Assembly: GCA_044892525.1 (NCBI GenBank)
Contig: CM097886.1
Location: forward strand, 100,192,001-100,256,000
DNA length: 64,000 nt
Direction: 5' to 3'
Source of the DNA: Schmidtea polychroa
Taxonomy: Eukaryota
Below the pieces are notes generated by a model. The model was not told the DNA's origin. It did no database searches and saw only the letters and a list, made by a program, of their open reading frames with translations. Position numbers and translations under genes: made by a program. The stretch's first letter is position 1. Each line of letters begins with the position of its first letter. Below are positions 39,006 to 63,403 of this stretch, one piece after another.

Positions 39006-40229
39006 TAAAGTAATAGTGAGATAGCATTCAAGCTACAAGTTGATAACATTTAAATTACTAGGGAGATGGAATATTAAAGCTAGCTAGAAGCAAATTGAGT
39101 TTGAAATATGGTATTTGAATTTAGAAAGGATTAAACGAGCTCGTGGGAGGTAATAATGAAATTTTTTTTTCAGTGAGAAAGAGAAACTGAAAAGGAAAAT
39201 GAATTAAAGAGATAATGAAAATAAAGAATAAGTGAGAATAAATGATGAGTAAAAGAGGAAGGTGATTAATTAATTAAAAGGGATCCCAGATGAGTAGACA
39301 AAGTTCTACAGAATTTTTTTGGTTTAAACCGGTTAAACGAATTTTGTTTTGGTTACAGAGTAGAACCAAATAAGGGGAAACAGAGATGAAAGATTAAGTA
39401 AAATAGCGGAACCGCGTAAAAGGATTAAGAAAATATGGGAGGTAATAAGCAGTAACTGACAACGACCTATCGATATTATAAATGCTAACTATAGATAATT
39501 TATACGACTATATAGATAATTGTTACTACCCCAAATAGATAATTTAAAATCGACGAAAAATATGGGTTGATGGGTAATTATATTCCGCGAAGAAGCGTAT
39601 GAGGGGAAATGAAGAGAAGTATAACAGAGGCCCTAAAACGGTGTCTGTGCTTGAATGTGGCAAAAAGGAATGATTGATTCGTGTAAGCAAAGGCAACACG
39701 ATATCATATTTTCATTGTAGACATCAATCCAACCAAGTCAATTCAGAACCAGCTCAAGAGGAATCCAGGGAATATACAAACAACCCAGGAAAAGCAATTC
39801 AGAACCCGCACAAAGGAAAACAATATCAGAACCGAACTCGACCAATTCCGCAGACGCTAACCGTAGAAAAACCCACGTGAAAAGACAGAAAAGAGTAAAA
39901 GGAAAATCACGGATAAACCCAACCTTAGATCTTCAAGTAAGCCAGGGGACGTATTATTTTCAGGAGACGAATTAGATCAACTCAAAAGAGGACGATCATT
40001 TAGGCAGCAGAGAGGAATATCACAAGGAGCAAAAAGACCCCACAAAACACCGATATACGATCAAGAAAACCCCACAGCCGGACATACGCCCAGTCGATCT
40101 AGAAGTAGAGAAAGTCTATCCGATATAACAAACAACCTAACCGGGTCAACAGAAGAATTATCCGTCCATAGTTTAGCTACATCACTAGAAAATTTAAAAG
40201 AAATAATAGCATTTCAAGAACCAATCAAG

Positions 40230-45300: not shown

Positions 45301-48300
45301 ACCCTCATATTACCTGGATTAGATAAAGAAATAGTACCTATACAACGGGAAGACTGTAAAGAGCTTTTTAGAACCGGAGCGATGAGAATCAGGGATGGAG
45401 TAACAATACACGGACAAAGCGGAATGATCAAGACAGAAAGTATCTATGTCGCCGGACGAGTAAAATCAACTGATGGATCATGTAACGGAGGCACATATAC
45501 GATCAGAGGAGAGGTGATATCAGGAGTAGTAGTAATTGAGTCCTACACAGTGGAGTTGAAGGAATACGAAGCACAATTCGACGCAAACAACTATCAAATG
45601 AAAACCAACCCAGCATGCAGAGCTACGGAAAACGTGTGTAGAACGGGGATTTCGACTATAATATATGAAGCTAACACCCAAAAATGCCGACTCCAATTGT
45701 TAAAAAGTGCTCTATTCAATGAAGTAAAAGGAGAAATTTACGAAAACGAGGATGACGATGAAGAGAATGGAAACGTAAGGATGCGAAATGGGAAACCAGT
45801 TCCGCCATCCCCCAAAGAAAAGAGACTCATAACCCAAAAAACACCAACGGCATTAATTACAGATGACCCAGATATCGGCATGAGATTCATTAGAGAAAAA
45901 GAGACCACCAAATGTGACAGTATAGTATACCGGACGAACTACGCAGGTATCTACATGTCAAGGCAAGTAATAGACCGAGCAGTGGGAAAGGTAGCAACAG
46001 AGGACGTAAAATTGTACCTGTATGCCAATAACAAAATGGACTTTTTATTTCATCGAGGACAAACGACAATGCAAAAAGTGTATTACGATCTTATACAAAA
46101 TGACTGTTCATTGAATAAAGAGATACTAAAAACAAAATTAGCCATCGCAATAACACACCCAGATAACACAATGCCATCACTCCCGCTACCGGATGGACAT
46201 TTTGGTAGAATGGTGGGAGAGGTAATGTATACATATGCATGTACCAAGACATTTGCGCGACTGCCAAGAAAGCCCACAATTCCACCAGGGAAATGTGCAA
46301 ACGAGTTAGAAATTAGCTACAAAGGGCGGAACAGATTCGTTCAACCCGTCACTCGGATAATGAACCCAATTGGATTTTATCCAAACACCTTTAACTGTTC
46401 AAATGCATACGGACCGTTATATGAAAAACCCGATGGGAAATGGATAATGTTACCAGTAAAAACCGAAGTACAAGAGCCTAAAAAGTTTGGATTAATAGAA
46501 CTCGCAACAGAACAAGATTTCAAACCAATTGATGTGTCAAAGGCTGGTATGTACTCACCAGAGGATTTAGAAACGGCACGATTAAACGTATTATTCCCAG
46601 CAAGACGGGAATCCATTCTATCGAATATGGTTACCATAACTGGGGGAACGAATTTCCAGTCAGGCCCCAATTACGAACTATTATTGTCACCTGATCATTT
46701 TCAACAAGCCACGTCAAACATGATGAAAGCCATGTGGGGAAGATTTCTAGTGTTCGGTCAAATGATGACAGGAATATTGGGAATCATTCTTATTATACAG
46801 ATTGTTAGAGTAATATTAACTCAAATGTTAGCGTGTTTTGATATCTATAAGAGAGAAAAGAAGGTAAATTGGAAATTGATAGTGGGCTTTCTACCATTTT
46901 TGGCAAAAACAATGGTGTTGCACGGTCATTCTAAAGACATACATAGAATAAAACGATTGATCAAAATACTGACAAAAATAAAAGGAACTGACGAGGAAGT
47001 CGGTAGACGATTTCGGAAAACAATGTATGATGAAGCAACAAGGACGCAACTGAAAAAGAACAAACCAAAATTCCTAGACAGATTTAGAAATCGATCAAAC
47101 AGCAGCGATAGTGATGATGACGACAACGGGAATGACAAATACCCATATCCAAGTAGAAACCCGAATGAAAAGCCAATAGAAACAGCGCCATACTGGGAGA
47201 AAGAAAAAACAAATACCTGGATAGCCAACGGAAGTTATATACCACCGGATATCGTTGGACAACAAACAGCTTTGACCATGACACAAAATATGTATCCACA
47301 GTTACCAAGTCAACCAGGTATGAACTATATGCCGACCCGAAGAACGAAAAGTGTAGACCAAGCGGACGACGTAAGAACGATAGCAGTGATGAGTTCACCA
47401 GGAGGTGCGGCAGTAACAGTCATGATCCAAATCAACGGGAAAGAGACAAGCGCAATGATAGATACAGGGGCAAACGTATCAGCAATAGCAATAAACCAAA
47501 TACCCAGTAAATGTTGGAAAGATATCGAACAAACAACTATCCATATTATTGCATGCAGTAAAGAAACCGTAGACGTAGTAGGAAGATGGTGGACTACGTT
47601 ACGATATCAGGATAACGAAATTGAAACGTATCTAGCGGTGATACCCAAACTGAGTGAACCATGTATAATCGGAACGGATTTAATGCCGGAATTGTTTAAG
47701 GAAGTAGTAATCGATTTAACAACAATGTGTCTAAAAGACAAAATGGGTAGAATATGCAAGATGAACGCAATAATTAGATGTCCGGAGAAAATAATTGTAC
47801 CCGCAAAATCACAAATGATATGTCAAATAAAAGTGGATGCAGGAATGGAAGGAGAAGTCATTTTTGAGCCAAGCAAATCATTCGAAAAACGACGAGAATT
47901 ACCATTAGCAAGAGAAATAATAACAATAAATGAAGACGGGGAAATACCAATTAACATCACAAATTTCGAGGAAGAAGACAAGATCATATATGAAAATGAA
48001 AGATTGGGTAGATTGACACCCATGATAGACATCGAATTACCAAAAATCACCAACGAAACAACGAAAGCTGACGAATTATGGATAATTGATAGCACCTTAC
48101 TAACGGAAAAAGAAAAGGAAAGACTTCAACAATTATTGATAGAATATAAAGATATATTCGCAATTTCGGATTTAGATTTGGGAGCATGCGATGTTACACT
48201 ACACGCAATACCATTAATAGACGAAACTCCAATCGCACTACGTCCATACAAACTAGCAGAGAAGCAAAAAGAGATAGCCGAAGCAGAAGTACAAAAAATG

Positions 48301-51300
48301 CTAGATGCACAAGTGATCGAACCAAGTTGTTCGCCATGGCAATTTCCAGTAGTCATGGTGAAGAAAAAAGACGGTACTCAGAGATTCTGTATCGATTATC
48401 GGAAATTAAATGCAGTAACAAAAAGAGACACATACCCTTTACCAGACATCAATGAGATGTTACTTATGTTACAGGGGGCCGCATATTTTACATCTTTAGA
48501 TCTGAAAAGTGGATATTGGCAGATCAAAGTCAAGGAGGAAGACAAAGAGAAAACAGCATTCACATTGGGCCGAGATCTATACCAATTCAGGAAAATGCCG
48601 TTCGGACTGACCAATGCCCCAGCATCATTCCAGAGATGTATGAATTTTGTCACACACGGGATCAAGCAGTGTATGGTATATATTGATGATTTATTAATAT
48701 ATTCAGCAACTTTCGAACAACATTTGGAAGACATTAGAAACGTGTTCATCCGATTACGACAATGGAAATTGAAACTCAAACCATCCAAATGTGATTGGGC
48801 AAAAGAAAAAGTTACGTTCTTAGGACACATAGTGTCAGCAAAAGGCAAAGAACCAGATCCAAGAAACATAGAAAAAATAAAAACATGTCCAGCACCAAAA
48901 ACTGTCACCCAAGTTCAAGAATTTCTCGGATTATGCGGATATTATCGAAAATTCATCAAAAACTATGCAGGTATTGCGAAACCAATACAGGAATTAGTGA
49001 AAAAGGATATTTCATTTATTTGGGGTGCAGAACAACAAAAAGCGTTTGAGACATTGCGAGATAAATTAATTGAAGCCCCAATACTAGTACATCCTGATTT
49101 CAAGAAACCGTTCTTATTAGCAACAGATGCAAGTGGATATGCAGCCGGAGCAATATTGGGACAACTCGACGAAGAAGGAAAAGAAAGAGTGATTGGATAC
49201 TACAGTAGAACGTTTAAAAAGCATGAGAAAAACTATTCCGTAACCGAGAGAGAAGCGTTAGCAATCATACAAGCGATTAAACATTTTCGATATTTGTTAT
49301 GGGGACACGAAATATGTATCACCACGGATCACCAACCATTAGTATGGCTTGGTCAACACAAAGAAGCCTCAAGTAGATTGATGCGATGGGCAATGCAGTT
49401 ACAAGAATATTCACCGTTCATAAAATTCAAAGCGGGAAGAGCGAATGCCAATGCGGATTGTATGTCCAGATTTATCTTTCCAGATTTAGTAGATCACGAA
49501 ATGCAACGAATATGTCTGATGGTAGCAGAAGATTTAGATTTTTGCCAATTACGGAAAGACCAACAAGAGGATACAGAGTTGAAGCAAATCATTGAATATG
49601 TGAAAACAGGGAAAGCAGAGGTATATGAGAAAGATCAAAAATTGAAGGAGCATATGGATAAACATCGACATCGATATATTATCGAGAAGGATTGGTTATT
49701 GATAATGGATGGCGAGAAAAGACTGATGTGCATTCCCGAGAATAGACGTAAAGATCTACTAACACAATACCATGACGGAAGACTCGGAGGACATATGTCA
49801 TCTAAAAAGACGTTGGCACGAATGAAACAAAAGTATTTTTGGCCTACATTGACCGAGGATGTAACGGAATGGGTGAAAAATTGCATAACTTGCGCAACCA
49901 GAAAAAACACGGGAACAAAATGGAAGGCACCATTAAAGCCAATGCCAGTACCAGCGGAACCAATGACAATGATATCAATGGACGTAGTCGGTCCATTACC
50001 AGAATCAGATAGAGGGAATATATATATATTGGTGATTACGGATTATTTGACGAAATTCCCCGAAGCATTCGCAATGGCAGATCAGAAAGCAAGAACAATC
50101 GCAAAAATACTAGTAGAGGAGATATGCTGTCGATATGGAACACCGAAACAGATACTAACTGATCAAGGGACAAATTTCATGAGCGAAATAACGAGCGAAG
50201 TCACCAACTACTTCAAGATCGCAAAATTAAGAACATCACCGTACCATCCACAAACTAATGGGATGACAGAAAGATTCAATGGAACACTGATTCATATGTT
50301 ATCAAATTATGTCGATCGTCATCAACGCGACTGGGACGAGTATATAAAATTATGTTTAATGGCTTACAGAATGTCGATTCACGCGTCCACAAAGATGAGT
50401 CCGTTTAAGTTGATGTACGGTAGAGAATGCAATATGCCAATGGATTTAGAATATCAGCCACCAATATCACAATACATGGAAATAGACGATTATGTAACCA
50501 AGTTCAAGGAAAGAATGCAGGAAATCTGGGAAACTGCAGGATTGAATATAAAATTTTATCAAGAAAGTTACAAAGAGTTACATGATAGAAAGAAAAACGT
50601 CAAACAGCATACGTTTCAAACGGGCGATTGGGTGATGATCGAAACACCAGAATTAATTCCAGGAACCACCAAAAAATTACAACGAAACGGCAAAGGTCCG
50701 TATGAGATTCTATTCATCGGAGAAACCAATGTGAGAGTACGATTAGTGAACAACCCTTTTACAAGACCAATATACGTAAATGTTGCACGATGTAAGCCAA
50801 TACCGAAAACAGCCACCAGCCAGCCGGAAGGGCGAACCTTAACCACAAGATCACAAACATATAGAATAAACATGTTACAGCAGATAAACGAACCAACAGG
50901 TAATCGATTAGGGTTACAACCATCAGAAGCCGAGAAAATCATAAAGGAAGTAAAAGTTAAAATGCCCGGATGGGCAAAAGACAGATTAGATTTTGAGATA
51001 TTGGGCGGTCTGCTAACAATGATCGAAAATTATGCAAACCGAGAAAGAACACACCCATTACTTAGGGTAGTAAAAAGTCAATGGCCTATATTATTTACGA
51101 TCACAGACCATTATGGAGATACACCGCTGCACAAACTTTTAAAGGTCGGGAATAATGAACAAATACTGGAAACGATCGAAGCATTTCGCGACTGTAACAT
51201 TTCGACGGATCAAGAAAATAACCAAGGTTACACCCCACTAATGATAGCAGCCAATCGGGATAAAGCTAAAGATATTATCATCGCATTACTCGAAACTGGG

Positions 51301-54099
51301 TCAAAGATAACCACGCAAGACCACAACCAGAAAAATGCACTACATCATGCAATCGAAGGGAAAAGTACGGAAGCCTTCATAATCTTAGTAGATCTATTAG
51401 CATATGAGGATAATAGGGAGATAGGAAACATGTATGACGGGTTACTAACTGCAATCAAAGAGAGATTAATAACAATTGCTGGATTACTAATTGCATGGAG
51501 AAACCCGATAAAAAACGATTATATGGTAGATATAAACGAAACATTTACCAAAGGAGAAAACACCTTGATGAGAGAAGCGATGAGAGGACACCACCTATTC
51601 GAAATTCCAAATCAACTACTACAACGTGGCATAAAGTTCTCAAATCACAAAGACGAACAACTAATCAGAAAACGAATTACCAACTTCGAAAAAGCTATAT
51701 CTCAATTTACCGATAAAGTACAAGTAAAATTTTGGGAAACCGTGAGTGTTTTACATATGATGGAAACTATGAACAACATTCGAGAAAACTACCTAAGTAT
51801 TATTCAAGTTCTAATGGCGGAGGAACGCATTAACAGTTCGAACAAGAAAAAGATAAAAATAAAGAAAGTAAAAGCAAGAGAGTCTGGGGAACAAGTCGAT
51901 CAACCAATAACCGATATAGCAACAACAAATAAACCAAAGACAATAAACTCCGACCAAGAGATAGTAGTACGTAAGGCTAAAGAAGTATTCTTTGAAGAAA
52001 TGCAAGATCTATCCGATGAAGCGATACTAGCAAAAATAACCAAAACAGTACACACCTACGCAAGAGATCAGACCACGAATCTAGACATAGGAAAAATAAA
52101 AACATTTATACCACTAGCATTCACCTTACCAACAAAAGACTCAAGAACACCATTACAACAAGCCATTTTAGCAGCAAAAGAAAACAGAGCAATAACCATC
52201 ATAAGAATCCTCAGAGACTTCGGAGAAGAATCTAATGCAAAAAATGAACAAGGAGAAACAGCAATGATGTATGCAGCCATAACAAATATACACCCGAAAA
52301 CATTACATATACTACATCGATCGGGATCAAGACTGGATGAAATATCAAACGAAGGAAATTCTACCATGGATTGGGCAACGATACAACCAAACTTGGAAAT
52401 GATTAGATTCATTTGTAAAAATGCTACAAGAACCGAGGTAGAAAATATCTGTAAAAACACGTCACAGTTCCAATGGAACACGATACGGATGAACTTAGAA
52501 GCCATGAAGTTATTGGTAACATGGAGAATACCACAAAGCAATAAATATGCAATAAATATAAATGAGTTCTACGAAAACGGAGAAAATGCGATGGTTAAAA
52601 ATACACTAACAAAAGGAGGAACTCCGAAAATCATAATGATCGTATTGAACAGGGAGGACCTCAAATTCACGCAAAATCTAAACGAACAAAAGCGAATCGG
52701 AAAACATCGCCGTATACAATTGAGAGAACTGGTAAAAGAATGGAATAGAAAGAGACATGTAGCAACAGGCAGAAAGGAGTTCGAATTCGAGGCAAAATTA
52801 GCAAGAAACAGAGTGCTAACGGCATACCACAGATTGTTGAATGATATAAATGTCGAGGACGACATTTTAAACGATAGCGGGGGAGATAAAGACGATAAAG
52901 ACGACGATAATAATGAAAAAGGTCGAAACGGGAATAAAGAGAAAGAGAAATCAGAGGGGAATAATCAAGAAAATAACAACGCGAGTAGGAAAAAAGAAGA
53001 AAACAACCCGAGAAACCGAATAAAGCAAGAAGAAAAGACGAATAGTGGAAAACAGAGGGTATGTCTACTTTTTACCAACAAAGAAATGGAGACAAATATG
53101 ATGATAATGATACTCGTATTAACAATGGTGGAAATGATAACAGCCCAGGGAGGAATGAGAACGATAAAAGAAGCCAAAGAAACGGAAAATAAGGACAACA
53201 AAGAGGAAGAACTAAAACAAGAAAAGAAAAAACAAGTACAAGAGCAGCAATGGGATTTAAAAGAAGAATGGGATTTAAAAGAAAGGTGTATATTAGGAAG
53301 ATGTATGTCTAGAGCTTATCAGAGACTAGTGTTAAAAAATGAAGATGCAGAACCAATAACGGAAGTAAGAATACAAGAAGCATATCGAAATCGAGACGGA
53401 AAGAGAATAACGAAAGTCAAAGGGAAGGAGGTACATCTGGGAAAAGGAGGTGAGGTAGTGATAACGCAACTCCAGCCAAGAAAAGAACACAAAGTCTGCA
53501 TTGCAAGATTAAGACCGGGGGAAGACTGTCTACAATATGTAATACAGCAACAACCTCCAAAAGAATACACAATATGCATCTGGAGAAAAGATACAGCGAG
53601 AGAATGTCGACGATACCCTGGGAAAAGAGGGAAGAAAAGAAAAATCGATGATGGAAAAGATGAGCAAGGAAAACGCAAGAAAAACAGTGAGAAACATCAA
53701 GACAATTATGTATCCGAGGAGGAGATGGAGAAAATACAAAAAATGGCAAAGGAAGGTATGAACGAGGAAATAGCAAGAATACGAGGAATGATGAAAGGAA
53801 ATGGCAAAGACGGTAATCTAAAAAGCACAGAAGCAATATCAACACTAACGAGCAAGGAAAAAGCGGAAGTTATAAGCGTAAAACAGATGATGTGGATCAG
53901 CGGCATAATAATAACAGGGGCCTTTTTAATCATAACGGGGGGGACAATAAAAATAATCAAAGATAGACGGCATCGCGGAGAACTAGAAATGGCCAGAATA
54001 AGAAATTTTCAACATCGTGTAAAACGACCAAGTAATATCAAGCAGGAACAGTGGGTGGAGGCCTGGAATGCTCAGCTCCCTCCAAGCTCACGTATATAG
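42322..54099 (+). CDS. pol: 3925-aa polyprotein (+1 frame relative to gag, open from 42280): UBL domains, Bcl-2-like, Env, PR, dUTPase-like, RT, RNase H, IN, ankyrins, C-terminal membrane protein
   Basis: Uninterrupted 11.8-kb ORF with MIDTGANVS, YIDD, ATDASGYA, HX4H...CX2C, MDVVGPLP, TDQGTNF, PQTNGMTERFN and GPY. Confidence 0.95.
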   Translation: MGSSRKKEYLYQYQGEQIKPDMHLIDALIWPGEIQILKLYKEKQPANIHEWAKDAKAEYDFNIKLKLDQIKQCTLRRNLDKLIKQIQEQVEDNWDLLITRRTADMHELMSRLRDTELLRMSDWRTINLIHKYGRLKETQPQKLEITIWLPNEEKRRIKMSNQSTVDDLVTKINQEITEKVRSESNDGMIDDVVMMYDKIILRAEDDTSLSEMGIWDNHQIIRILPMDEFRTRDITYQKEIRDRMKTLYQKSVEIIEIHQQWLKEKELQGKIKKLSVRSCRRTPWERMWDAESKEWEIRKGIFVETDIGEIESEPEEEEDEPPKYEEDEIESTSDDESETDVTSESETETRHIHAMRKKEREYADMDSEEAMEAREREEKERYKQLGDILATGTKNQKRQVIALANIILKTSENIHNLREMAKAIEEYRQYNEWYPEQLEQIIRKWRNQEWAQDTQERYRIRVKYPDKSIEDTEVHPTTKIRELKKKLAYETPFHLQLFGKSLDDNVDVGITPMRLGEINVLTMAETLGKPIKRKSKSSKPTKGSLSTPSPNKVASKSNETEEIEEIILEDSDEGAGERSPILVRWPTGAEIWTTSQPSTSHQQPNKLSIEEIIDNTTETETDEQFQRQKGPTKATPEGQTDKIIDEWNEWLRNNDSSLPRTDNERNPNYENTREAGTMMEKRAKGRPKKQGEKPEFKTREQLKQEQGQVRLEKLDKIVWDLKEALPTIERGEKWIRELVKDMLIVTNPQLRRLWQRKVASVDARQLWNTISGIIPKLIKEKTKTTKTDWEETRRVIEQLTLNANDDEHHLVVLTYLMYNLMGLAARKIPNKQFANHVEMTVTIIENTIEPHIIRAGGWKRLIQAPRKNEQERSMQIRLKKLLNELEWELPLKDPASRKASINSLMMTMMIWMLCTSGAAGFTIYDCDNSIIGERYSLRDIEECRQASPNKLDIVKKKVSYHVYQESDFIRTQARECVVSKKVLAYYCGQYSYSTLILPGLDKEIVPIQREDCKELFRTGAMRIRDGVTIHGQSGMIKTESIYVAGRVKSTDGSCNGGTYTIRGEVISGVVVIESYTVELKEYEAQFDANNYQMKTNPACRATENVCRTGISTIIYEANTQKCRLQLLKSALFNEVKGEIYENEDDDEENGNVRMRNGKPVPPSPKEKRLITQKTPTALITDDPDIGMRFIREKETTKCDSIVYRTNYAGIYMSRQVIDRAVGKVATEDVKLYLYANNKMDFLFHRGQTTMQKVYYDLIQNDCSLNKEILKTKLAIAITHPDNTMPSLPLPDGHFGRMVGEVMYTYACTKTFARLPRKPTIPPGKCANELEISYKGRNRFVQPVTRIMNPIGFYPNTFNCSNAYGPLYEKPDGKWIMLPVKTEVQEPKKFGLIELATEQDFKPIDVSKAGMYSPEDLETARLNVLFPARRESILSNMVTITGGTNFQSGPNYELLLSPDHFQQATSNMMKAMWGRFLVFGQMMTGILGIILIIQIVRVILTQMLACFDIYKREKKVNWKLIVGFLPFLAKTMVLHGHSKDIHRIKRLIKILTKIKGTDEEVGRRFRKTMYDEATRTQLKKNKPKFLDRFRNRSNSSDSDDDDNGNDKYPYPSRNPNEKPIETAPYWEKEKTNTWIANGSYIPPDIVGQQTALTMTQNMYPQLPSQPGMNYMPTRRTKSVDQADDVRTIAVMSSPGGAAVTVMIQINGKETSAMIDTGANVSAIAINQIPSKCWKDIEQTTIHIIACSKETVDVVGRWWTTLRYQDNEIETYLAVIPKLSEPCIIGTDLMPELFKEVVIDLTTMCLKDKMGRICKMNAIIRCPEKIIVPAKSQMICQIKVDAGMEGEVIFEPSKSFEKRRELPLAREIITINEDGEIPINITNFEEEDKIIYENERLGRLTPMIDIELPKITNETTKADELWIIDSTLLTEKEKERLQQLLIEYKDIFAISDLDLGACDVTLHAIPLIDETPIALRPYKLAEKQKEIAEAEVQKMLDAQVIEPSCSPWQFPVVMVKKKDGTQRFCIDYRKLNAVTKRDTYPLPDINEMLLMLQGAAYFTSLDLKSGYWQIKVKEEDKEKTAFTLGRDLYQFRKMPFGLTNAPASFQRCMNFVTHGIKQCMVYIDDLLIYSATFEQHLEDIRNVFIRLRQWKLKLKPSKCDWAKEKVTFLGHIVSAKGKEPDPRNIEKIKTCPAPKTVTQVQEFLGLCGYYRKFIKNYAGIAKPIQELVKKDISFIWGAEQQKAFETLRDKLIEAPILVHPDFKKPFLLATDASGYAAGAILGQLDEEGKERVIGYYSRTFKKHEKNYSVTEREALAIIQAIKHFRYLLWGHEICITTDHQPLVWLGQHKEASSRLMRWAMQLQEYSPFIKFKAGRANANADCMSRFIFPDLVDHEMQRICLMVAEDLDFCQLRKDQQEDTELKQIIEYVKTGKAEVYEKDQKLKEHMDKHRHRYIIEKDWLLIMDGEKRLMCIPENRRKDLLTQYHDGRLGGHMSSKKTLARMKQKYFWPTLTEDVTEWVKNCITCATRKNTGTKWKAPLKPMPVPAEPMTMISMDVVGPLPESDRGNIYILVITDYLTKFPEAFAMADQKARTIAKILVEEICCRYGTPKQILTDQGTNFMSEITSEVTNYFKIAKLRTSPYHPQTNGMTERFNGTLIHMLSNYVDRHQRDWDEYIKLCLMAYRMSIHASTKMSPFKLMYGRECNMPMDLEYQPPISQYMEIDDYVTKFKERMQEIWETAGLNIKFYQESYKELHDRKKNVKQHTFQTGDWVMIETPELIPGTTKKLQRNGKGPYEILFIGETNVRVRLVNNPFTRPIYVNVARCKPIPKTATSQPEGRTLTTRSQTYRINMLQQINEPTGNRLGLQPSEAEKIIKEVKVKMPGWAKDRLDFEILGGLLTMIENYANRERTHPLLRVVKSQWPILFTITDHYGDTPLHKLLKVGNNEQILETIEAFRDCNISTDQENNQGYTPLMIAANRDKAKDIIIALLETGSKITTQDHNQKNALHHAIEGKSTEAFIILVDLLAYEDNREIGNMYDGLLTAIKERLITIAGLLIAWRNPIKNDYMVDINETFTKGENTLMREAMRGHHLFEIPNQLLQRGIKFSNHKDEQLIRKRITNFEKAISQFTDKVQVKFWETVSVLHMMETMNNIRENYLSIIQVLMAEERINSSNKKKIKIKKVKARESGEQVDQPITDIATTNKPKTINSDQEIVVRKAKEVFFEEMQDLSDEAILAKITKTVHTYARDQTTNLDIGKIKTFIPLAFTLPTKDSRTPLQQAILAAKENRAITIIRILRDFGEESNAKNEQGETAMMYAAITNIHPKTLHILHRSGSRLDEISNEGNSTMDWATIQPNLEMIRFICKNATRTEVENICKNTSQFQWNTIRMNLEAMKLLVTWRIPQSNKYAININEFYENGENAMVKNTLTKGGTPKIIMIVLNREDLKFTQNLNEQKRIGKHRRIQLRELVKEWNRKRHVATGRKEFEFEAKLARNRVLTAYHRLLNDINVEDDILNDSGGDKDDKDDDNNEKGRNGNKEKEKSEGNNQENNNASRKKEENNPRNRIKQEEKTNSGKQRVCLLFTNKEMETNMMIMILVLTMVEMITAQGGMRTIKEAKETENKDNKEEELKQEKKKQVQEQQWDLKEEWDLKERCILGRCMSRAYQRLVLKNEDAEPITEVRIQEAYRNRDGKRITKVKGKEVHLGKGGEVVITQLQPRKEHKVCIARLRPGEDCLQYVIQQQPPKEYTICIWRKDTARECRRYPGKRGKKRKIDDGKDEQGKRKKNSEKHQDNYVSEEEMEKIQKMAKEGMNEEIARIRGMMKGNGKDGNLKSTEAISTLTSKEKAEVISVKQMMWISGIIITGAFLIITGGTIKIIKDRRHRGELEMARIRNFQHRVKRPSNIKQEQWVEAWNAQLPPSSRI
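44452..44910 (+). other. Bcl-2-like domain within the polyprotein
   Basis: BH2-like IENTIEPHIIRAGGWKRLI and a hydrophobic BH1-position helix HLVVLTYLMYNL. NWGR is absent. Confidence 0.65.
45031..46920 (+). other. env: Env glycoprotein (chuvirus-G/herpes gB-like class III fusogen): signal peptide 45031-45081, ectodomain, TM about 46750-46830
   Basis: AG/FTIYDC, YSLRDIEEC, ECVVSKKVLAYYCGQYS, DCKEL, DGSCNGG, a Cys-rich ectodomain and FGQMMTGILGIILIIQIVRVIL match the chuvirus glycoprotein-like pattern. Confidence 0.8.
47410..47710 (+). other. Aspartic protease domain
   Basis: INGKETSAMIDTGANVSAI ... CIIGTDL. Confidence 0.93.
48140..49470 (+). other. Reverse transcriptase and RNase H domains
   Basis: SPWQFPVVMVKKKDG, RFCIDYRKLN, LDLKSGYWQI, MPFGLTNAPASFQR, VYIDD; TDASG, EREALAI, TDHQPL. 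Confidence 0.97.
49720..50730 (+). other. Integrase (HHCC, DDE, GPY/F)
   Basis: HDGRLGGH ... CITC; ISMDVVGP; LTDQG; ERFNGTL; KGPYEI. Confidence 0.97.
51100..52620 (+). other. Two ankyrin-repeat modules downstream of integrase
   Basis: YGDTPLHKLL, QGYTPLMIAA, QKNALHHAI; RTPLQQAI, QGETAMMYAA, EGNSTMDWAT. Confidence 0.85.
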
Positions 54100-54267: not shown

Positions 54268-54627
54268 ATGGAGCGAATAGGCGAGGAAGTAAATCACAGT
54301 ACAACAACCGAGGAGATGTGGAAACAACAATGTGCAATGTTAACTCAAGTGATTTCGAATTTACAGGAACAAGGACTCGCTGTACAAAGAAGCTTAGTCG
54401 AAAGTTTAAATAAAGGCTTCAGTTATGTAAGAATAATCGAAGACCAACGAATAAAAATAGAACAAATGCAGCGAGAGATAGACCGAATATCACGATACAG
54501 CCAGGTGCAAGAAGAGGAGTTAATAAGAATCGCGGAAGAGATGGAGCGAGAGGAGATAGAAGACTGGTCGGAATGGTTAACCAGCAGGGAAGAGGGCGGA
54601 CAAGAGGCCGACTCTTCCAGCCAATAA
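54268..54627 (+). CDS. Small acidic coiled-coil protein (about 119 aa from ATG 54268)
   Basis: Intact ORF with E/Q/R-rich heptad pattern, bounded by AT-rich spacers. Confidence 0.6.
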   Translation: MERIGEEVNHSTTTEEMWKQQCAMLTQVISNLQEQGLAVQRSLVESLNKGFSYVRIIEDQRIKIEQMQREIDRISRYSQVQEEELIRIAEEMEREEIEDWSEWLTSREEGGQEADSSSQ

Positions 54628-54716
54628 ACATAACCTAAAATAACAATGTAAATAACTGTAAATAAAAATACGAAACTGTACCAGTAACGAATATATGTAT
54701 ATATATAATTATAGAA

Positions 54717-56105
54717 ATGGATAAGCGACAACGAGAAGAACTCAAAGAAATTGTTGAACAAGTCAGAAAGTCCACCACAATTCGAATACACAACCATGTA
54801 ACGTGTGGAATATGCAAGAGCTTATTAAGAGAACCTCACCAAACCAGATGTGGATGCAGAATGTGCAGAGAATGTGTAGAGGAGATAATAAAGAAGGGAC
54901 CACAATGGTGCCCGGTATGCAAAGAAACAATGATAACAAGTTTGGGAGATACAAACGAAGATAAAGCAGCTGTAAAAGATATGTTGAATGCAAACCTTGG
55001 ATGCAAAAACACCCCATGTAATTGGCGAGGAGTGATATGGGAAGTGAGGCAACATTTGGAGCAATGTGAATATAAAATCAGTCAATGCAAACGTTGCCAA
55101 GAAGAGATTAAAGTCAATGAAGAAGCAGAACATCAAAGTCGATGCGAAGAAAGACTGGAGAAATGTGAGTATTGCGGAGAAACCGACACCTGGAAAAAAC
55201 TAATCAGTCAACATCACAACATACAAGAGGAGAAAGTGTGCGCAGAATTCAGAGGAGAATGCCCCAACAAATGCGATAAACCCGGAGTAATAAAACTCGC
55301 TCAACATCTGAAAGAATGTGAAAGGAAAAAGATAAGGTGTGTGTTAGGAAAATGGGGAAATCAGAAACAATTACACCGAGGGGAATTACCCCAACACCTA
55401 GCAGAAAACGTATCAACACACGCGGAAATATGGTCAACGGTATTACAAGAAAACGAAAGGAAAACCGAAAACTTAGAAAGAGAAATAGTCTCGCTAAAAG
55501 CGTTGGTAAAAGAACTATTGGAAGAAAAAGAAGCATTTGAAGAGGCGAGAACAAGTACAAAGATACAGACAGATCTAGTAGAAACTAGCAACATTATGGT
55601 AAAAGAACTACATCAAAAAGTAAGCGAATTAAACCTCAACGAATTAATACCTACGGCCCCATACATATGGAAAATAACGGGAGTAAAAGAGAAGATGCAG
55701 AGAGCGAGAAATGGAAAGGATACGACCTTACTAAGTCCAGCATTCTACTCATGGAAAAACGGGTATAAAATGAAAATGAAAGCATACCCCAATGGGGATG
55801 GAAGTGCATACGGAACGCATTTCTCAGTATTCTTCTTGATGTGCAAAGGGCCACACGACGAGTTAATAGAATGGCCATTCAAAGCAAAAATAGACCTCGC
55901 AATGATGAACTATCAAAATATACATGAACAGAGTTTCCATACAGCGGGAAACCTCGTATGTTACCAAAGGCCCTTGGAAGAAGAAGGACCAGCAACTGGA
56001 GCACCGAATTTCATCCTACAGCGGAAAGTAGAAGACATGACGAAAAACGACACTATATACATAAAAATAGCGGTGAGGCGAGACGGGAAGAGTAGGACTG
56101 AGTAG
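54717..56105 (+). CDS. TRAF: Full-length intronless TRAF (RING, TRAF zinc fingers, coiled coil, MATH/TRAF-C domain), 462 aa
   Basis: CGICKSLLREPHQTRCGCRMCREC...CPVC; HLEQC, HQSRC, HLKEC fingers; YIWKI, LSPAFY, GYKMKMKAYPNGDG, THFSVFF, DELIEWPF, NDTIYIKIAV. Confidence 0.95.
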   Translation: MDKRQREELKEIVEQVRKSTTIRIHNHVTCGICKSLLREPHQTRCGCRMCRECVEEIIKKGPQWCPVCKETMITSLGDTNEDKAAVKDMLNANLGCKNTPCNWRGVIWEVRQHLEQCEYKISQCKRCQEEIKVNEEAEHQSRCEERLEKCEYCGETDTWKKLISQHHNIQEEKVCAEFRGECPNKCDKPGVIKLAQHLKECERKKIRCVLGKWGNQKQLHRGELPQHLAENVSTHAEIWSTVLQENERKTENLEREIVSLKALVKELLEEKEAFEEARTSTKIQTDLVETSNIMVKELHQKVSELNLNELIPTAPYIWKITGVKEKMQRARNGKDTTLLSPAFYSWKNGYKMKMKAYPNGDGSAYGTHFSVFFLMCKGPHDELIEWPFKAKIDLAMMNYQNIHEQSFHTAGNLVCYQRPLEEEGPATGAPNFILQRKVEDMTKNDTIYIKIAVRRDGKSRTE

Positions 56106-56324: not shown

Positions 56325-57362
56325 ATGACACAAGAAGGAACTGAAGCCCCAAACCACGAAACCAAAGTCAATAAAATCCATAAGGGAAAATGGGTCAAAG
56401 TAATGTTACAATTGACGAACCAGACCCGCAACCACCTCGAAGAGGCCAGGGAATACGAGAATAACAAATATCAGTGGTTAGTAAACAATTTAAGAGCCGA
56501 AGCAGAAGCATGCAAAAGAGCCTCTAAGTGGGCATCATTGGAAAACACTCGCCAAGAAGCGCACAGCCACTATTTAAAACAGTTAGTTCAGGAAGCACGG
56601 AAACGATTGACGGACGAAAACACAAAACGAGAAGCAGAAAAACAAAAGGAAGGAAGGAAAATGAATCACCTATTGGCAGAAGCCCGAAACTGGAAGCGGC
56701 AGAACAAAGAGATGAAAAAAGAAATGAAAGAATTGCCTATGAGATTAGAATACGAAAGCGAACAAGGCAAATGGGAGGAAAATCTGGTCATAAGAGAAGA
56801 ACTGAAACGGCTCAGAAAGATTGCGGCCCGAAGCCAAACATGGCAGACCAAAGCCATGGAATTTGAAAGACATCTAGCCATGAAAATCTCCATAAGGGAG
56901 CACGAGAATGCCGCAATGGAAGAACTGATACTTCAACAGTCAGGACGACTCGTGGAACTGGTAAATAAGGTCGCCGAACTAGAACGAGATGTCAACGGAT
57001 ACCAAGGAGCTCTGGAGCAGAGAAATATGGTACTGGCGGGGAAAAACAAAAAGTTAGAAAACGAAAGGAAAATGTATAACGAAAATCTCAAAAATCTGGA
57101 GATAGAGATCAAGAAATGGGAAAACGGCGAAAAAGCGGAAGAGCTAGAAAAACAGATAGAGGTAAGAGACGATGAAACCAGGTATCTAACATACCTGTTG
57201 GACGAGGAACTTAACGTGTCAAGAGCACTAAGAGACGAAGTGCAAGAACTTAGAGCGCAGATTCCCCGGTACTACATACCATTTGATCCCATCGCACTCC
57301 AATTACAAACGTCAGTAGAAAGCGATGAGGGATATGTAGGCCAGGAAGAGACCTTTGTATAA
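56325..57362 (+). CDS. 345-aa coiled-coil protein of unknown function
   Basis: Long intact ORF, E/K/L-rich heptads. Confidence 0.7.
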   Translation: MTQEGTEAPNHETKVNKIHKGKWVKVMLQLTNQTRNHLEEAREYENNKYQWLVNNLRAEAEACKRASKWASLENTRQEAHSHYLKQLVQEARKRLTDENTKREAEKQKEGRKMNHLLAEARNWKRQNKEMKKEMKELPMRLEYESEQGKWEENLVIREELKRLRKIAARSQTWQTKAMEFERHLAMKISIREHENAAMEELILQQSGRLVELVNKVAELERDVNGYQGALEQRNMVLAGKNKKLENERKMYNENLKNLEIEIKKWENGEKAEELEKQIEVRDDETRYLTYLLDEELNVSRALRDEVQELRAQIPRYYIPFDPIALQLQTSVESDEGYVGQEETFV

Positions 57363-57376
57363 AGATAAAGGGGAAG

Positions 57377-57378
<2 letters not shown>

Positions 57379-57570: not shown

Positions 57571-58272
57571 ATGAACGCTGAGAACGGACAATCTATCATA
57601 ACACCTATAATCGAATTAGAAGAGGGGGAAATTGAAGTTGATGAAGTGGAGAGGAAGAAAACTATCAAGGAAGAATTACAAGAAGAGAGACAGGAAAACG
57701 AAAGATTAGTAGAAAGGTGGAGAGATAATCGAAAAATGATCAAAGTATTGAAAAGAGAATATAGCTTGTTAGAAGGAGTAAAGAAAGAAGTAGAGGAAGA
57801 AAACGAATGGCTTCACGAGCAAAGAAAGCGAGGGAGAAATTGGGAAAAGATCGCGGAAGAATTATGGCAGGAGATGGCCAGTCGAAAGGCCGACGAAGTG
57901 ATTAGTGACTATTGGAAAACCGAGGCACGGAAACACCAAGAAAGCCTGAAAGAGTTACAACTCCAACTACACCAAAAACAGAAGGAATGCGAGATAATGA
58001 GACGAATGAACAACAAATACCAGGAAATAGACAACGAAGAAGACGGGGAAAGGGAAAATGATTTTCTACAGATAATGAACCATAAAAACCTCGAAAGAGC
58101 AACACAAGAAATAAAAGCACTAAAAGAAAAAATAATAACCCTAAAGCAACAGTTAGACGAAAGAGACAAACAATTAAAAGTACTACCCGAATTGAGAAAA
58201 CGAGTAATAAAAGCAGAAACGAGAGTGATGAGAACATCCGAGAAAACCCGTAAAAAGAAAACCCGGCAATAA
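57571..58272 (+). CDS. 233-aa coiled-coil protein of unknown function
   Basis: Intact ORF, E/K/R-rich heptads, basic C-terminus. Confidence 0.7.
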   Translation: MNAENGQSIITPIIELEEGEIEVDEVERKKTIKEELQEERQENERLVERWRDNRKMIKVLKREYSLLEGVKKEVEEENEWLHEQRKRGRNWEKIAEELWQEMASRKADEVISDYWKTEARKHQESLKELQLQLHQKQKECEIMRRMNNKYQEIDNEEDGERENDFLQIMNHKNLERATQEIKALKEKIITLKQQLDERDKQLKVLPELRKRVIKAETRVMRTSEKTRKKKTRQ

Positions 58273-58327: not shown

Positions 58328-58963
58328 ATGTGGTTCGGAGCAACCCTGGTGACAATAATGATGATAGCGATAAACGGAATACCCATGTGGCAGCCAATCC
58401 CAACACTATGGGAGAATCCCGAGAAACAGCAAAACCCGTTAACCAAACTGAAAAGCGAAAGAAAGCTCTCCAACAACATCCCGAAACAATGCTGGAACAA
58501 AGCCGTCTGGAAAAAACTCCAAATGCAACTCCACCTACAAACCCAAAAAATCGAACAGCTCGAAATTCTCTTACAAGAACAAACTACCCAACAATCCTTG
58601 AAAGAAATCATCATGAAGAAGGAAGTAAAAGAAAGCCAAGTCCTACTCTATACTACCATCAGTGAAACCCTTATCATCTGCGCACTAGTCATCTGGAAAG
58701 CGTATGATATTCATCGAACATGGAGAAGAAACCAGTCACTATCCGAGAAACACGAAAGAAAGAACCCACGACCGAAAAATAAACATAAACGAGCAGTACA
58801 TTTTCAACAACCAAACCCACCTGACCAAATGCAACAAAATCTATCTCCTGACCAAATGCCTGTTACAATCCAGCTCCCCACGATAACAACTTCAACCAGC
58901 CATCCGACCCAGAATTCAACCAACCAAGACAGTAATAACATTCCGAACCTTGAGATCATGTGA
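58328..58963 (+). CDS. 211-aa putative type I membrane protein
   Basis: Signal-like MWFGATLVTIMMIAING, TM-like VLLYTTISETLIICALVIW, then a basic stop-transfer stretch and a P/Q/T-rich tail. Confidence 0.6.
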   Translation: MWFGATLVTIMMIAINGIPMWQPIPTLWENPEKQQNPLTKLKSERKLSNNIPKQCWNKAVWKKLQMQLHLQTQKIEQLEILLQEQTTQQSLKEIIMKKEVKESQVLLYTTISETLIICALVIWKAYDIHRTWRRNQSLSEKHERKNPRPKNKHKRAVHFQQPNPPDQMQQNLSPDQMPVTIQLPTITTSTSHPTQNSTNQDSNNIPNLEIM

Positions 58964-59194: not shown

Positions 59195-62100
59195 TGTTGG
59201 GCTAAAACGTGGAGTTTCGAAAACTGGAGCGAATAGAAAAGTAATCCTTGAAAAATAAACGAAATAAAATATAAATATAAAGTACCATCAAATTCGCGCT
59301 AATAAAGCAAAAAGGAACAATAAAATATCAATAAGAGAATAAGAATAAGTAAAACAAACTAAATAAAACCCAATAAACCCCTTGAGATTTAGAAATAAAG
59401 CGATTTAGGACCCAGCAGATGAAATAGAATAAAATAAGTAAAAAAGTGACAACAAATAAACGAGAAATTTAAGAAATAAATAAAAATAAAACTATCTTTA
59501 AGTCTAATTAAAACAAAAAATTATATTACAATAAAGTAGCAATAAATCCACAGGAAAAATAGGAGGAAAATAATAAAAATAAGAAAATAAATAAAATAAT
59601 AATAAGAAATAAGTTAAGTCATTAAAATCTAATACATTATAATAAAAAACATAAAAATAATAATAAATAGTAAAAATACAAACAAGTCGTGTCCTGATTG
59701 GACGAAAAATAGTATATAAGGAACGGAAAATATCTGTAGAGTACCACTTTTAAAAAATATTCTACAGGTAAACTTTGGTTCGTTATATACTACCACTTTT
59801 AAAAAATATTCTACAGACTTGACAGATTTCGGAACCTTTAATTAGCCTACAGCGAACTAGTTCAGAGATTTCCAAACCAAACCGAGGAAGGAATATATAG
59901 AGGCCAAACTACAAATCCATTCGGGAAAAATTTTAAATTCAACCGATTTAACTTCAGTTTTCGAAACTCAAGGTATGCCTCGACAGTTGTTTTATTTATG
60001 GTTATTAGTTAATTTCGTTAATTATTATAAATATAATAAATCAATTTCATATAATAAATTTATTTAAATGAAAAGTTGCCTTTCTTCATGGTACCGGCGA
60101 CTGTACCATCTGAGAACTCCCAGTATGATGTGGACGAGTTGGAATTGCACTGCAGTAGAGGACACCACCGTGGAAAGGTTGGTATGCATAAGAAATCACG
60201 AACATGCTGAAAAGAGAATGTGATATTTGTAGAGAGTGATATTGTCATATTAGATATCCATCAAGGAGACGAGGAGGTTTCGGTTATGTAGGAGGAGCAA
60301 CATCATACTCGGAGATCCAAATGATATGGTCGCCGGGTAAATTTTATTTATGCATTTTCTATCATTCAGTTTGATTATTGTATTGTTGATTTGATTGCAT
60401 GGAAACGAGTTGATTGGTCCCTCATGACGGTGCAAGGAGGCGGCAGCAATGAATGCCTTCTTGGGTGTGTCGTGAGGGGTGAAGAAACTCAGTAGGTGGA
60501 ACATCCAGTTAATAAATGACAGTTCCTTCATCAAGCGCGATCGTCTATAGAGCGTATCATCGGTTCATTGAGTTAAATCGAGATTTCCAGTAGTTGTAGA
60601 AATGATTTGAATTCCGAATGCAGACAGTTCAGAGCGAGATAGGCAGTGACGTTCATTCAGATTCGGTAGTAATCCGCATAGCTAGGAGAAAAATTCCTTT
60701 TCGTGATATTCAGCCGGTCGATCGACGTAGTTAGGAAAGAGCAGTGTTGACCATGGATTGCAAGTAAATCCAACGATTTTTCGGTGACGCACTGCGTTTG
60801 CAAGGTTCTGTCTAATTGATGCCGTCATGACGTTAGCGGTTACATCCATTGTCGATGTACTCTTACGATTTAATTGTCGTCCGTGAGTCGCCAATGCCGG
60901 TGATAAAAAATCTCTCGCTGACAGGGAAGTAAACATCTTGCAGGGAAATTATCAAAATTCTTACTTCGAGCTCGCAGACAGTAGTTGCCAACGATAACGA
61001 AATCAGTTGATTTACATTAGCCAGCGTAGAGTTAGTCGACAGGAGATATCTGATAATGTCCTGGAGAAGGAGATAACATGTTAGTTTTTCTGGGAAAATG
61101 TCAAATGAATAAGCTGATAGTCATTGATCTGAATTAATATCGTAAAAGGAAATTAGATGATAATGTTGAGCTTACCCAAGAATCTACGAAGTTGTCGCCC
61201 ACTCAGATTGATTAATCTGATTTTCCGATTTACCTACGGCTGCTTATTTGAGGAATCGATTACGCAACCACTATTATTCCGACTTGAGCATGCACATACA
61301 CACGCACCACAGTCAAGTCTACATAGGGCAGTGTAAAAGTAAATCCACAATTTTTGGTGATGTAATAGCGGCACGATAATATGACTTTTCTAGAACAGCG
61401 AGATAATAGGGTGAAGTAAAGGAATGGATTTCCCCTACACAACTCGATATATAATAATTTCTCATAACAACCTAAACCATCATTCGCGGCGATAGCCAAC
61501 ATACAGTTATAGATGCCACCATTCAGTCATAATGCACACTCACAAGTAAACGTTTTCCATGACGACGATTTCGACGCGTTATTTGAATTAATTAGATGTC
61601 GATTTAGAGCAGAATTTTCAACTGATTACGTGATCAATTCCATAATTTTGAACGAGATAAAAACATAAATAATCTATTCCGTCGCCGTGAATTATTTCTC
61701 TGTAATTTTAGGTACGCCTACATCGACGGATTGCCATAATGATATCGGCAAATTTTTAAATAAATTATCCTAAGGGGAACACGGTTGAAGGGGATAAAGT
61801 AAAAGACGAGTTTTACCTGGGGATGGCCCCATCCGAAAGTAAACCCAAAGGGCGAGGTTTGTGTAGAAAGAATTTTTGGTGTACGAATCCCCGTTTCCTT
61901 TTCTTAAATTACACGAATCAGGTGAAGAGATTTGAATGTTTGCGACTGAATGACTGCGAATAGAGATGGATGAGGAAGTGTGTGGGTCATCGTTGGGTGG
62001 TATGCTTGATAAACTCCAAAGCCACGCTCAAAAATTTGATTATTCTTTTTCTCACTGATAGAGGTTTTTCCGAGTAAATATAAACAATGATTGATTTTCT

Positions 62101-63403
62101 AGATGGCTACATCGTCCAACAACGCCAACGAACTTCGCCCGTGTTTTTCTTGCGCGGACAAGAACGCGGATATCGCCCAACTGCATCTATATATCGGGGC
62201 TCTCAAAAAGAGAATTGATCTCTATGAAGGAACGTGGTTCTCCCCGCCACAAATGAAAGAGGAACGCAAGAAAATTCTCCGATTAGAGCATTGCAGGGAC
62301 AGCCTGCTAGAGGAAAGCCGTTGCCAGCGGCTCACCATCAAAGCGCAATCAGAAGCCCTCCATAAGGTGTATACGGAGGCAGAATTGGCTAAGCGGGTGC
62401 GAGAATTTCCCGTTCTGGATGGGACGAATGTTTTTCCCCTTCACCACCAGTCTCCTACATCTTCCAGCTCGCACTGCCAGGGGCACGGCTCACAACTGCC
62501 GCCCATTCCAGCCCCAGTGTTGTCAAGTCACCAGCCAAAGACAGGTGGACCTACCGATCCCATCGTAGCTCAAATCTTGGTAGCACCAATCGGTACCACG
62601 AACACCGAAAAACCCCCGACTAACCGCAAACGGAAACGGCCAACTCGAGCCGAGAAGAACCAAAAACGCCGAGATGCGATGACAGCACTCGAGACGTCCT
62701 TATCGGCGGCGAAATCAAAAATCCAAGAGATAACGTCCTCCCATTCAATCCCCTCAAAGGAAGTCTTCCGCATTGTTCCAGCGGAGGGCATCAAGTACAT
62801 TGTAGATAGCCGATTACCGGTCGACATAGATGAGATACTGGCCGATGGAGATAACTTTGTTTAATGTGATGTACAATTGAGCTTGATTTCCTCTTCATTG
62901 AGTTGTAAATTATCTTGTGAATGTTGCTAATGTTATATCTTTTTGACTGCTGTTGATCTGTTAGTGGTAATGATATTTTTATCGTTTCAGTGTCAATAAA
63001 ATTTTCTGTTTGATTTCAGTTTTGTCGAGTTTTCATATATTTGTTTGTGCAATTTGAGTAGATGAGATAATGCTGCGGAATGAAGCTAATTAAAGTTGAA
63101 AGTCGTTCCTTTGGACCAGGAGCAGACCAAGTGACACGCATGTATGTGGGTAAGTCCTTCTAGGGCACCGTAGGACCCGAACCGAGAAAGGGTTAGGAGT
63201 AGTCCTAAGGCAGGGGCTCACCTGCTAACCTTTTCCGACCCGTGTGAGCAGCACCAACATGGAACATCACCATGGGCTCATATGTGGGAATATGCAATCA
63301 ATCATTTGGAGTATGTGTAGAAAATGTATAGCGGAGCCATGATGCTTGATAGGTGTGATGGAAAGGCATGTATAATTTTCTTTCTTCTCCACATACGCCA
63401 ACA
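59195..63403 (+). repeat. 3' LTR (4209 bp)
   Basis: Near-identical to the 5' LTR; followed by the ATAT TSD. Confidence 0.97.
62103..62864 (+). CDS. 3' LTR copy of the 253-aa LTR-encoded protein
   Basis: Identical translation to 35502-36263. Confidence 0.7.
   Translation: MATSSNNANELRPCFSCADKNADIAQLHLYIGALKKRIDLYEGTWFSPPQMKEERKKILRLEHCRDSLLEESRCQRLTIKAQSEALHKVYTEAELAKRVREFPVLDGTNVFPLHHQSPTSSSSHCQGHGSQLPPIPAPVLSSHQPKTGGPTDPIVAQILVAPIGTTNTEKPPTNRKRKRPTRAEKNQKRRDAMTALETSLSAAKSKIQEITSSHSIPSKEVFRIVPAEGIKYIVDSRLPVDIDEILADGDNFV

Follow-up and report, generated by a model that had tools for sequence, protein, structure and literature searches.

The 64-kb stretch of the Schmidtea polychroa genome analysed here (the window) holds at 54717-56105 of its forward strand a TRAF gene that lies between the long terminal repeats (LTRs) of a giant retrotransposon, and this locus raises the question of why a mobile element carries such a gene, from where it was taken and whether it has in turn supplied the host with TRAFs. 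An initial annotation had described a complete intronless TRAF of RING, zinc-finger, coiled-coil and MATH architecture inside the element, and this description was borne out by the open reading frame (ORF), a single uninterrupted frame of 462 codons, as well as by Pfam, alignments, an AlphaFold2 model and the flanking LTRs (Table 1).

Pfam recognised both the RING (PF00097, residues 30-68, E 9.5e-5, 22.6 bits with a cut-off of 21) and the MATH domain (PF21355, residues 316-453, E 3.5e-25), and zf-TRAF gave no match to the window protein at E 0.01. The zinc fingers were assigned from the alignment to TRAF6 (5vo0), which was aligned by the RING and first fingers (residues 27-157, E 4e-15), and from conserved Cys/His columns; the zf-TRAF profile does match the homologous TRAF of the Burro1-like elements described below. 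For the coiled coil-MATH part, the best alignment was to TRAF2/TRAF3 (E 2.5e-28), and in the AlphaFold2 model (mean pLDDT 92, pTM 0.51, 46-row alignment) a long helix at residues 232-304, with pLDDT >80, is followed by a beta-rich MATH domain, solved TRAF2 domains being the best Foldseek match (E 1.6e-17). The ORF therefore displays the features of the TRAF family, namely a TRAF-C/MATH domain, a TRAF-N coiled coil before it, a RING and TRAF-type fingers, and the protein may form trimers. In the MATH groove, K355, Y357 and D361 are kept and the serine triad is replaced by L413, V414 and C415, positions which we take to be those of the receptor-peptide groove of the TRAF2/3 type. This triad is replaced in the element TRAFs in general, differing between subfamilies.

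Table 1. Features of the TRAF gene and of the element that carries it, in window coordinates.
Feature	Coordinates	Strand	Basis
Target-site duplication ATAT (partner 63404-63407)	32554..32557	+	Sequence at outer LTR edges
5' LTR, 4245 nt, contains 253-codon ORF	32558..36802	+	LTR comparison
Primer-binding-site-like stretch after 5' LTR	36810..36827	+	Sequence
159-aa ORF with C-terminal IAP-type RING (PF13920, E 3e-8)	37263..37742	+	Pfam
gag frame: Retrotrans_gag, CCHC knuckles, first ATG 40230	39867..42398	+	Pfam
3904-aa ORF: Monjiviricetes-type fusion glycoprotein, protease, RT, RNase H, integrase, ankyrin repeats	42385..54099	+	Pfam
119-aa accessory ORF just upstream of TRAF; likewise in subfamily B and Burro1-like copies	54268..54627	+	ORF comparison
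AT-rich tract ending TAG, 2 nt before TRAF ATG; putatively splice-acceptor-like	54690..54714	+	Sequence
TRAF ORF, 462 aa, intronless	54717..56105	+	ORF listing, Pfam, alignment, AlphaFold2 and Foldseek
RING, residues 30-68, Cys ligands C30, C33, C45, C47, C50, C53, C65, C68	54804..54920	+	Pfam and alignment
Zinc-finger region, with finger-3 insertion common to planarian host TRAFs	54933..55421	+	Alignment; zf-TRAF profile silent on window copy
TRAF-N coiled coil (helix 232-304 in model)	55410..55628	+	AlphaFold2 model
MATH / TRAF-C domain	55662..56075	+	Pfam and alignment
345-aa accessory ORF downstream of TRAF, coiled-coil-like by eye; homologue in Burro1-like copies	56325..57362	+	ORF listing; no Pfam match
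233-aa accessory ORF, coiled-coil-like by eye	57571..58272	+	ORF listing
211-aa accessory ORF, type I membrane protein-like by eye	58328..58963	+	ORF listing
3' LTR, 4209 nt	59195..63403	+	LTR comparison

The carrier spans 32558-63403 (30,846 nt), and its 4.2-kb LTRs, with TG..CA ends, show 5 substitutions between them over 4209 aligned bases and 2 indels; since they are near-identical and flanked by ATAT, the insertion is a young one. The stretch behind the 5' LTR resembles what we take to be tRNA-Pro primer-binding sites. The pol order is protease-RT-RNase H-integrase, as in Gypsy elements, and in the window copy the fusion glycoprotein (PF24664, E 3.8e-71) is in frame with pol and gag in another frame. 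By its coding sequences, the element is a Gypsy element of the planarian Burro type. Its 159-aa ORF matches at 29-37% the RING end of a BIR-RING gene found in Burro1-like copies, a label given here to copies with a 4791-codon frame with MATH and a BIR-RING ORF, in agreement with the published description. No BIR domain was detected by Pfam in the nine ORFs scanned of the window element, the 159-aa ORF included.

Several further features of the window were recorded. Each LTR contains an identical 253-codon ORF (35502-36263 and 62103-62864) without Pfam match, and a 79-base tandem repeat array occupies 38246-39005, between the RING ORF and gag. In the window copy, gag overlaps the long ORF at 42280-42398 and is read in a different frame from it, the two being in one frame in Burro1-like copies. 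The products of 58328-58963 and ~53090-54099 are type I membrane protein-like (signal, outer domain, span and tail), with Burro1-like counterparts and without a convincing Pfam family. Outside the element, two near-identical inverted transposase-like remnants (2270 bases, 99 percent, 2.1 kb apart) lie at 21871-28711, a small minus-strand LTR element with 91-base repeats (99 percent) and a transposase-like insertion at ~17700-19000 lies at 14754-20876, and a 585-codon minus-strand ORF, hAT transposase-like, adjoins the 5' LTR (29814-31571).

The TRAF is a standing, family-wide gene of this element. In a DNA search, the 40 copies scored of 360 candidates were all full length and 97-100 percent identical, and 11 of the 11 other top copies were colinear with the window on both flanks. 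The exact RING pattern of the window subfamily (A) occurred at 113 genome places (control 0). Among 31 loci reached by other RING variants or in genome order, the 30 with a TRAF all held it among element ORFs and one (L108) had no TRAF; further copies lay in element DNA in 20 of 20 cases. Neither a target duplication nor a poly(A) of its own was found beside the TRAF ORF, and a TRAF unique to one copy with its own target-site duplication was thus not encountered, the other copies being in element context in 11/11, 30/30 and 20/20 cases. Decayed element copies were also met (L089/L110 and L178). Contigs of two sequencing runs join 54617/54639 to 58289/58290, so that the TRAF is skipped together with the two ORFs that follow, which corresponds to a minority version without this block.

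The same gene is present in related elements. In a sister subfamily (B), the TRAF is 68 percent identical to that of subfamily A and the RT 96 percent, and in the Burro1-like family the TRAF is 31-32 percent and the RT 86 percent identical to the window, with the TRAF in the same place after pol and a small ORF. The Burro1-like TRAF, whose RING pattern has 260 genome occurrences, is directly followed by the BIR-RING gene, and the polyprotein carries an additional RING-less MATH; in two such elements (L063 and L064, G000 C1), the two TRAF-derived units, polyprotein MATH and full downstream TRAF, were observed together, followed by the BIR-RING gene. The identities of TRAF and RT drop together (97/99.7, 84/97, 68/96 and 32/86 percent), and the neighbours of the TRAF are alike in A, B and Burro1-like copies. 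One clade and the same neighbours suggest that the TRAFs of the three element lineages share a single origin. Beyond this genome, a word-index protein search with the window TRAF returned distant TRAFs only (23-29 percent), and scans of metagenome and viral contigs confirmed 0 of 108 and 0 of 81 candidates, respectively. The best full-length database match to the TRAF was P0023, which in turn has only a distant counterpart in G000 (36 percent).

The initial annotation also proposed that the gene had been kept intact by selection, which the divergence among copies upholds. By pooled pairwise Nei-Gojobori estimates on stop-free copies, dN/dS of the TRAF was 0.12 in subfamily A (codon bootstrap 0.08-0.18; 27 of 31 copies usable, 20 of the 31 being top-scoring matches and so biased towards intact ones) and 0.14 in subfamily B (0.11-0.19; 11 of 18 usable). 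Among subfamily A copies taken in genome order, 12 of 13 were intact. For comparison, dN/dS was 0.02-0.03 in the RT and 0.13-0.17 in the ankyrin region. Between A and B, synonymous sites of the TRAF are saturated and dN is 0.18, and the frames are still open, so that neutral decay among copies is not the pattern seen. The RING region (0.13-0.14) is constrained like the rest of the protein; the first 27 residues of the subfamily A TRAF gave 1.07 (0.21-2.61), and no other region came near 1. Once inserted, copies accumulate stops and frameshifts in the TRAF at 0.22 per kb versus 0.29 in pol (6 vs 31 events, p 0.68, in 20 copies, 13 in genome order and 7 older, a weak test given the few events), and in the same 20 copies this equally weak test gave no sign of host preservation of inserted TRAFs. 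Therefore, since disabling changes strike the TRAF and the pol of inserted copies equally often, the selection appears to act on the transposing lineages.

The RING had been called atypical, and this holds against vertebrate TRAFs and fails against those of the host itself. It reads CGCRMC, with Cys47 (54855-54857) in place of the His of TRAF2/3/5/6-type proteins, so that the His that serves as fourth ligand in the C3HC4 RING of TRAF2/3/5 is absent and 8 of 8 ligands are Cys; spacing and ligands are kept in subfamilies A and B and in Burro1-like copies. However, the first host-side loci fetched gave 37 distinct RINGs, all with Cys, and after removal of one that was an element fossil, Cys stood at the fourth-ligand place in 36 of 36 host RINGs. 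A general all-Cys RING motif had 707 matches in the genome (control 0), and three TRAF4-like host genes keep the His, with the RING in a separate exon. Of the 101 RINGs parsed among the 150 best database matches, 81 had His and 20 Cys, and the named proteins of the Cys type among the 20 looked up were three TRAFs of Dendrocoelum lacteum (TRAF-2 T1DF65, TRAF-4 T1DBK6 and TRAF-5 T1D122) and three echinoderm TRAF3-like proteins. In the latter (P0067, P0084 and P0085), which lie beyond the planarian clade, His has likewise given way to Cys. The all-Cys RING is not element-specific, being present also in the three Dendrocoelum proteins and in host TRAFs from the clade to which the element TRAF belongs; in the RINGs sampled, the change is a mark of the triclad clade and has arisen elsewhere too. 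The window RING has I32, I58, P66 and K69, kept in A and B, which presumably fit the usual E2-facing pattern, and would be a zinc-bound C4C4 RING with E3 potential; the Burro1-like RING is without I32 and K69.

The lack of introns had been read as the trace of an mRNA-derived capture, and this argument did not survive comparison with the host. LTR elements usually capture genes through RNA. However, RING-to-MATH TRAFs in one open frame were found at host loci L033-L036, L038, L040, L069 (two genes) and L070, and because host TRAFs of the same architecture are themselves single-exon, missing introns are no sign of mRNA capture: the candidate parents are single open frames too. In a large clustered host expansion, the genes consist of two coding exons and encode fewer fingers. 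Its clusters lie at G000 C1 ~2.8-14, 68-77 and 258-268 Mb and C2 ~3-5 and 110-124 Mb, and two-exon genes with a strongly diverged MATH exon were noted at L102 and L111-L116.

Phylogenetic analysis placed the element TRAF among planarian host TRAFs. A quick tree of RING and MATH segments (83 rows) was complemented by a mixture-model tree of 49 of these rows, 34 near-duplicates, partial rows and outgroups having been dropped. In both trees the element TRAFs grouped together. In the 49-row tree, their clade (98/87, or 99/93 with the polyprotein MATH) nests among TRAFs of the host and of Dendrocoelum, in a joint clade with 99/93 support, and shares with these the CGC RING and the finger insertion; the two-exon expansion is a clade of its own (100/99), and the Dendrocoelum TRAFs fall in two host subclades. 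With fingers added and the coil removed (29 of 46 rows), the element clade received 100/99. Element TRAFs are rich in K/E/R/Q, a bias able to group them in trees; under Dayhoff-6 recoding the clade was kept at 92/98, its link to the polyprotein MATH dropped to 41/60, and it fell weakly outside nearly all host members. The trees do not fix the order in which the host subclades and the element clade split, so that donor and direction are inferred, and host-to-element transfer is favoured since Dendrocoelum members occur in two host subclades and host loci are free of element traces. The direction was thus very probably from host to element.

The suggestion that a mobile TRAF might feed the host expansions found no backing in these data. 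None of the sampled host TRAFs falls inside the element clade, and blastn detected window element DNA in 0 of 22 host TRAF loci (6-10 kb each); four host loci had weak RT or integrase matches (30-45 percent), read as other retroelements, and a 281-base element piece was present in one of eight further candidate loci. AU tests, on groups named after the tree had been seen, rejected nesting of the two-exon expansion in the A/B TRAFs (p 0.010) or the Burro1-like TRAFs (p 0.013) and did not reject its sister position (p 0.35), so that seeding of the host expansion is unlikely, not excluded. Ten RING-motif matches at G000 C1:152.9-153.5 Mb, considered as a seeded expansion, turned out to be copies, 99 percent identical, of a single dead element fragment without MATH that had spread by segmental duplication. 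Together with a locus at 183.5 Mb (L158-L167 and L170), they are recent segmental duplications of a dead truncated fragment with a RING-only TRAF.

As for its expression, the TRAF is probably expressed through the acceptor-like AG before its ATG. In the window element, a G-poor tract leads into an acceptor-like AG situated 0-6 bases upstream of the start codon at 7 of 7 small ORFs (starting at 35502, 37263, 54268, 54717, 56325, 57571 and 58328) versus 48 of 687 ATGs, the rule having been derived from the same seven ORFs first tested. Among Burro1-like accessory ORFs, the rule holds at the first ATG for four of the five examined there, the background being 74 of 720 ATGs. It also holds for a sixth at an in-frame ATG further upstream, and four additional frames do not conform. 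The subfamily B TRAF conforms as well, as do three other ORFs of this subfamily when the second ATG is taken, and one does not. This pattern points to spliced sub-genomic or trans-spliced RNAs. Contigs over 53500-59300 covered 29 of 30 bins in one run, presumed to be RNA although none of the listed runs is recorded as such, and 10 and 3 bins in two others; these counts speak neither for nor against expression.

The TRAF is a standing accessory gene of a Burro-type element, under purifying selection. On balance we lean, by a little, towards the reading that it was captured once and long ago from a single-exon, all-Cys-RING planarian TRAF, would be made from its own spliced RNA and would damp death or immune signalling of the host, thereby helping the carrier cell to survive. 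The pro-survival role itself is argued by analogy, and its chances appear evenly split. Planarian traf2-1 is reported to inhibit infection-driven tissue loss, in a screen centred on TAK1/MKK/p38 (PMC4993586, in the text available), loss of two planarian TRAFs to cause more cell death (PMC7586133, likewise), and the IAP of Burro1 to protect stem cells (PMC13465017, citing Lee et al.); a survival-promoting damper is favoured because of these reports. Burro1-like copies, moreover, have their BIR-RING gene immediately after the TRAF. On the other hand, the viral TRAF that was tested, ISKNV ORF111L, promotes apoptosis according to the portion of PMC3352826 available, and therefore the sign of the effect of the element TRAF is not to be assumed. 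Receptor binding and E3 activity are not clearly shared functions, because the groove varies and the Burro1-like RING is without I32 and K69, and since the BIR domain is absent, a TRAF-IAP pair is not to be assumed for the window element.

An unlikely, though not far-fetched, alternative is that the protein is a decoy against anti-element immunity, joining host TRAF trimers or taking their partners and thereby blocking the sensing of element RNA or particles, without a general survival benefit. Such a role would agree with the altered and variable groove, with a TRAF that evolves faster than the RT (A-B identity 68 vs 96 percent), with the viral-type fusion protein of the element and with the RING-less MATH in Burro1-like polyproteins; however, a pure decoy would not need a RING as constrained as the rest, and only the first 27 residues in A approach a dN/dS of 1. 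It is improbable that the TRAF instead serves the life cycle of the element itself, as ligase or scaffold for its membrane proteins or particles and not in host signalling. Besides a fusion glycoprotein, the element does encode another RING protein and ORFs resembling membrane proteins, one tail of which has a PxQxS motif, but this motif is absent from the matching subfamily B and Burro1-like proteins, and the contigs joined across the TRAF block indicate that versions without it exist, which may be non-autonomous. For the same reason, the motif being missing in these counterparts, an LMP1-like module in which the membrane protein of 58328-58963 recruits the TRAF via PTQNS was set aside.

Reverse or two-way traffic, with the intronless all-Cys clade or the two-exon expansion descending from a TRAF carried by an ancestral element, is quite improbable. 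In its favour, the basal host members consist of one exon, like retrocopies, the position of the element clade among host subclades and the sister position of the expansion leave room for it, and host duplication does amplify element TRAF DNA. Against it stand the rejected nestings, the host loci free of element DNA, the Dendrocoelum members in two host subclades, the fact that the amplified fragment is dead and lacks MATH, and host genes without the A-rich bias of the element (AT skew 0.00-0.19 vs 0.35-0.41). Accordingly small is the probability we would give to its more specific form, that the TRAF lost its introns and the RING His on an ancestral Burro-type element and then founded either host group; if it were true and the element were the source, a major host immune and survival gene family would descend from retrotransposon cargo circulating in hundreds of copies. 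That the gene is a neutral passenger, or a retrocopy that reached this single element independently, is scarcely credible and is contradicted by the colinear copies and the selection estimates: inserted copies break the TRAF at the rate of pol, as expected of any element gene, but the TRAF is fixed in all copies examined, and its low dN/dS and open frames persist across saturated synonymous divergence. Cross-targeting of host TRAF mRNAs by element piRNAs, an idea prompted by the available part of PMC6824462, is unlikely by sequence, as blastn of the 22 host loci against the element gave no match.

The TRAF is common to at least three Burro lineages and clearly selected, and so offers a second, directly testable handle on how elements manipulate or serve their host. 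It also bears on gene counts, since element-type RING motifs number 113 and 260 (two exact patterns, with subfamily B uncounted) versus the 707 general all-Cys matches, and transcript-based planarian TRAF tallies and TRAF RNAi targets may include transposon cargo. Furthermore, the all-Cys RING is the rule in the expanded planarian TRAFs, and the ligase activity of this variant appears unexamined in the literature found.

Among known systems, vertebrate TRAF2/TRAF3 share the domain order and fold and are the best sequence and structure matches, and differ in their C3HC4 RING and the serine triad in the groove. They are also multi-exon genes. The triclad all-Cys TRAFs (L033-L036, L038, L040 and L069; Dendrocoelum T1DF65, T1DBK6 and T1D122) are closer, with the CGC RING, the finger insertion, CY before QRP in the MATH domain, a single open frame and membership of one clade, whereas the element TRAF is 23-31 percent identical to them, has the base composition of the element and a more altered groove, and is multiplied by transposition. 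A mobile genome carrying a RING-coil-MATH TRAF is also known in the Megalocytivirus ISKNV, whose ORF111L belongs, however, to a fish DNA virus, has 296 aa, binds TRADD and promotes apoptosis (PMC3352826, portion available), and independent capture is assumed. A planarian TRAF expansion has been reported, with no link to Burro elements mentioned in the available text (PMC6109357), and no mention of TRAF was found in the accessible parts of PMC8532177 and PMC11410931.

The nearest relatives are the Burro elements. According to the available text of PMC6431247, a MATH_TRAF_C motif was described in Burro1/GYPSM1 in 2007 (Jurka) and in Burro-2 to -4 in 2018 (Grohme), and in an element of Dugesia tigrina the MATH belongs to an accessory ORF. 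The window element shares with Burro/GYPSM1 as described there a length of more than 30 kb, a Gypsy pol, long LTRs, ankyrins, a MATH/TRAF motif and a fusion-glycoprotein region that precedes the protease. That text places MATH_TRAF_C in the polyprotein or an upstream ORF, whereas the window element has a full RING-finger-coil-MATH gene downstream of pol, no MATH in the polyprotein, no BIR found and, in the window copy, gag in another frame. In the portions of the literature available, no account of a full-length, selected Burro TRAF gene was found, and the figures or supplements of Grohme 2018 and Lee 2026 may show one. The B-IAP of Burro1 (Lee et al., Dev Cell 2026, via the accessible text of PMC13465017) is likewise a host-type survival gene present as a Burro accessory ORF, and in the Burro1-like copies of the S. 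polychroa genome the BIR-RING ORF is the next ORF after the TRAF; its function is reported as tested, whereas no tested function was found for the element TRAF, and the window element has a BIR-less RING ORF only. The element TRAF is thus an extension of a known system, and its two headline oddities have ordinary explanations.
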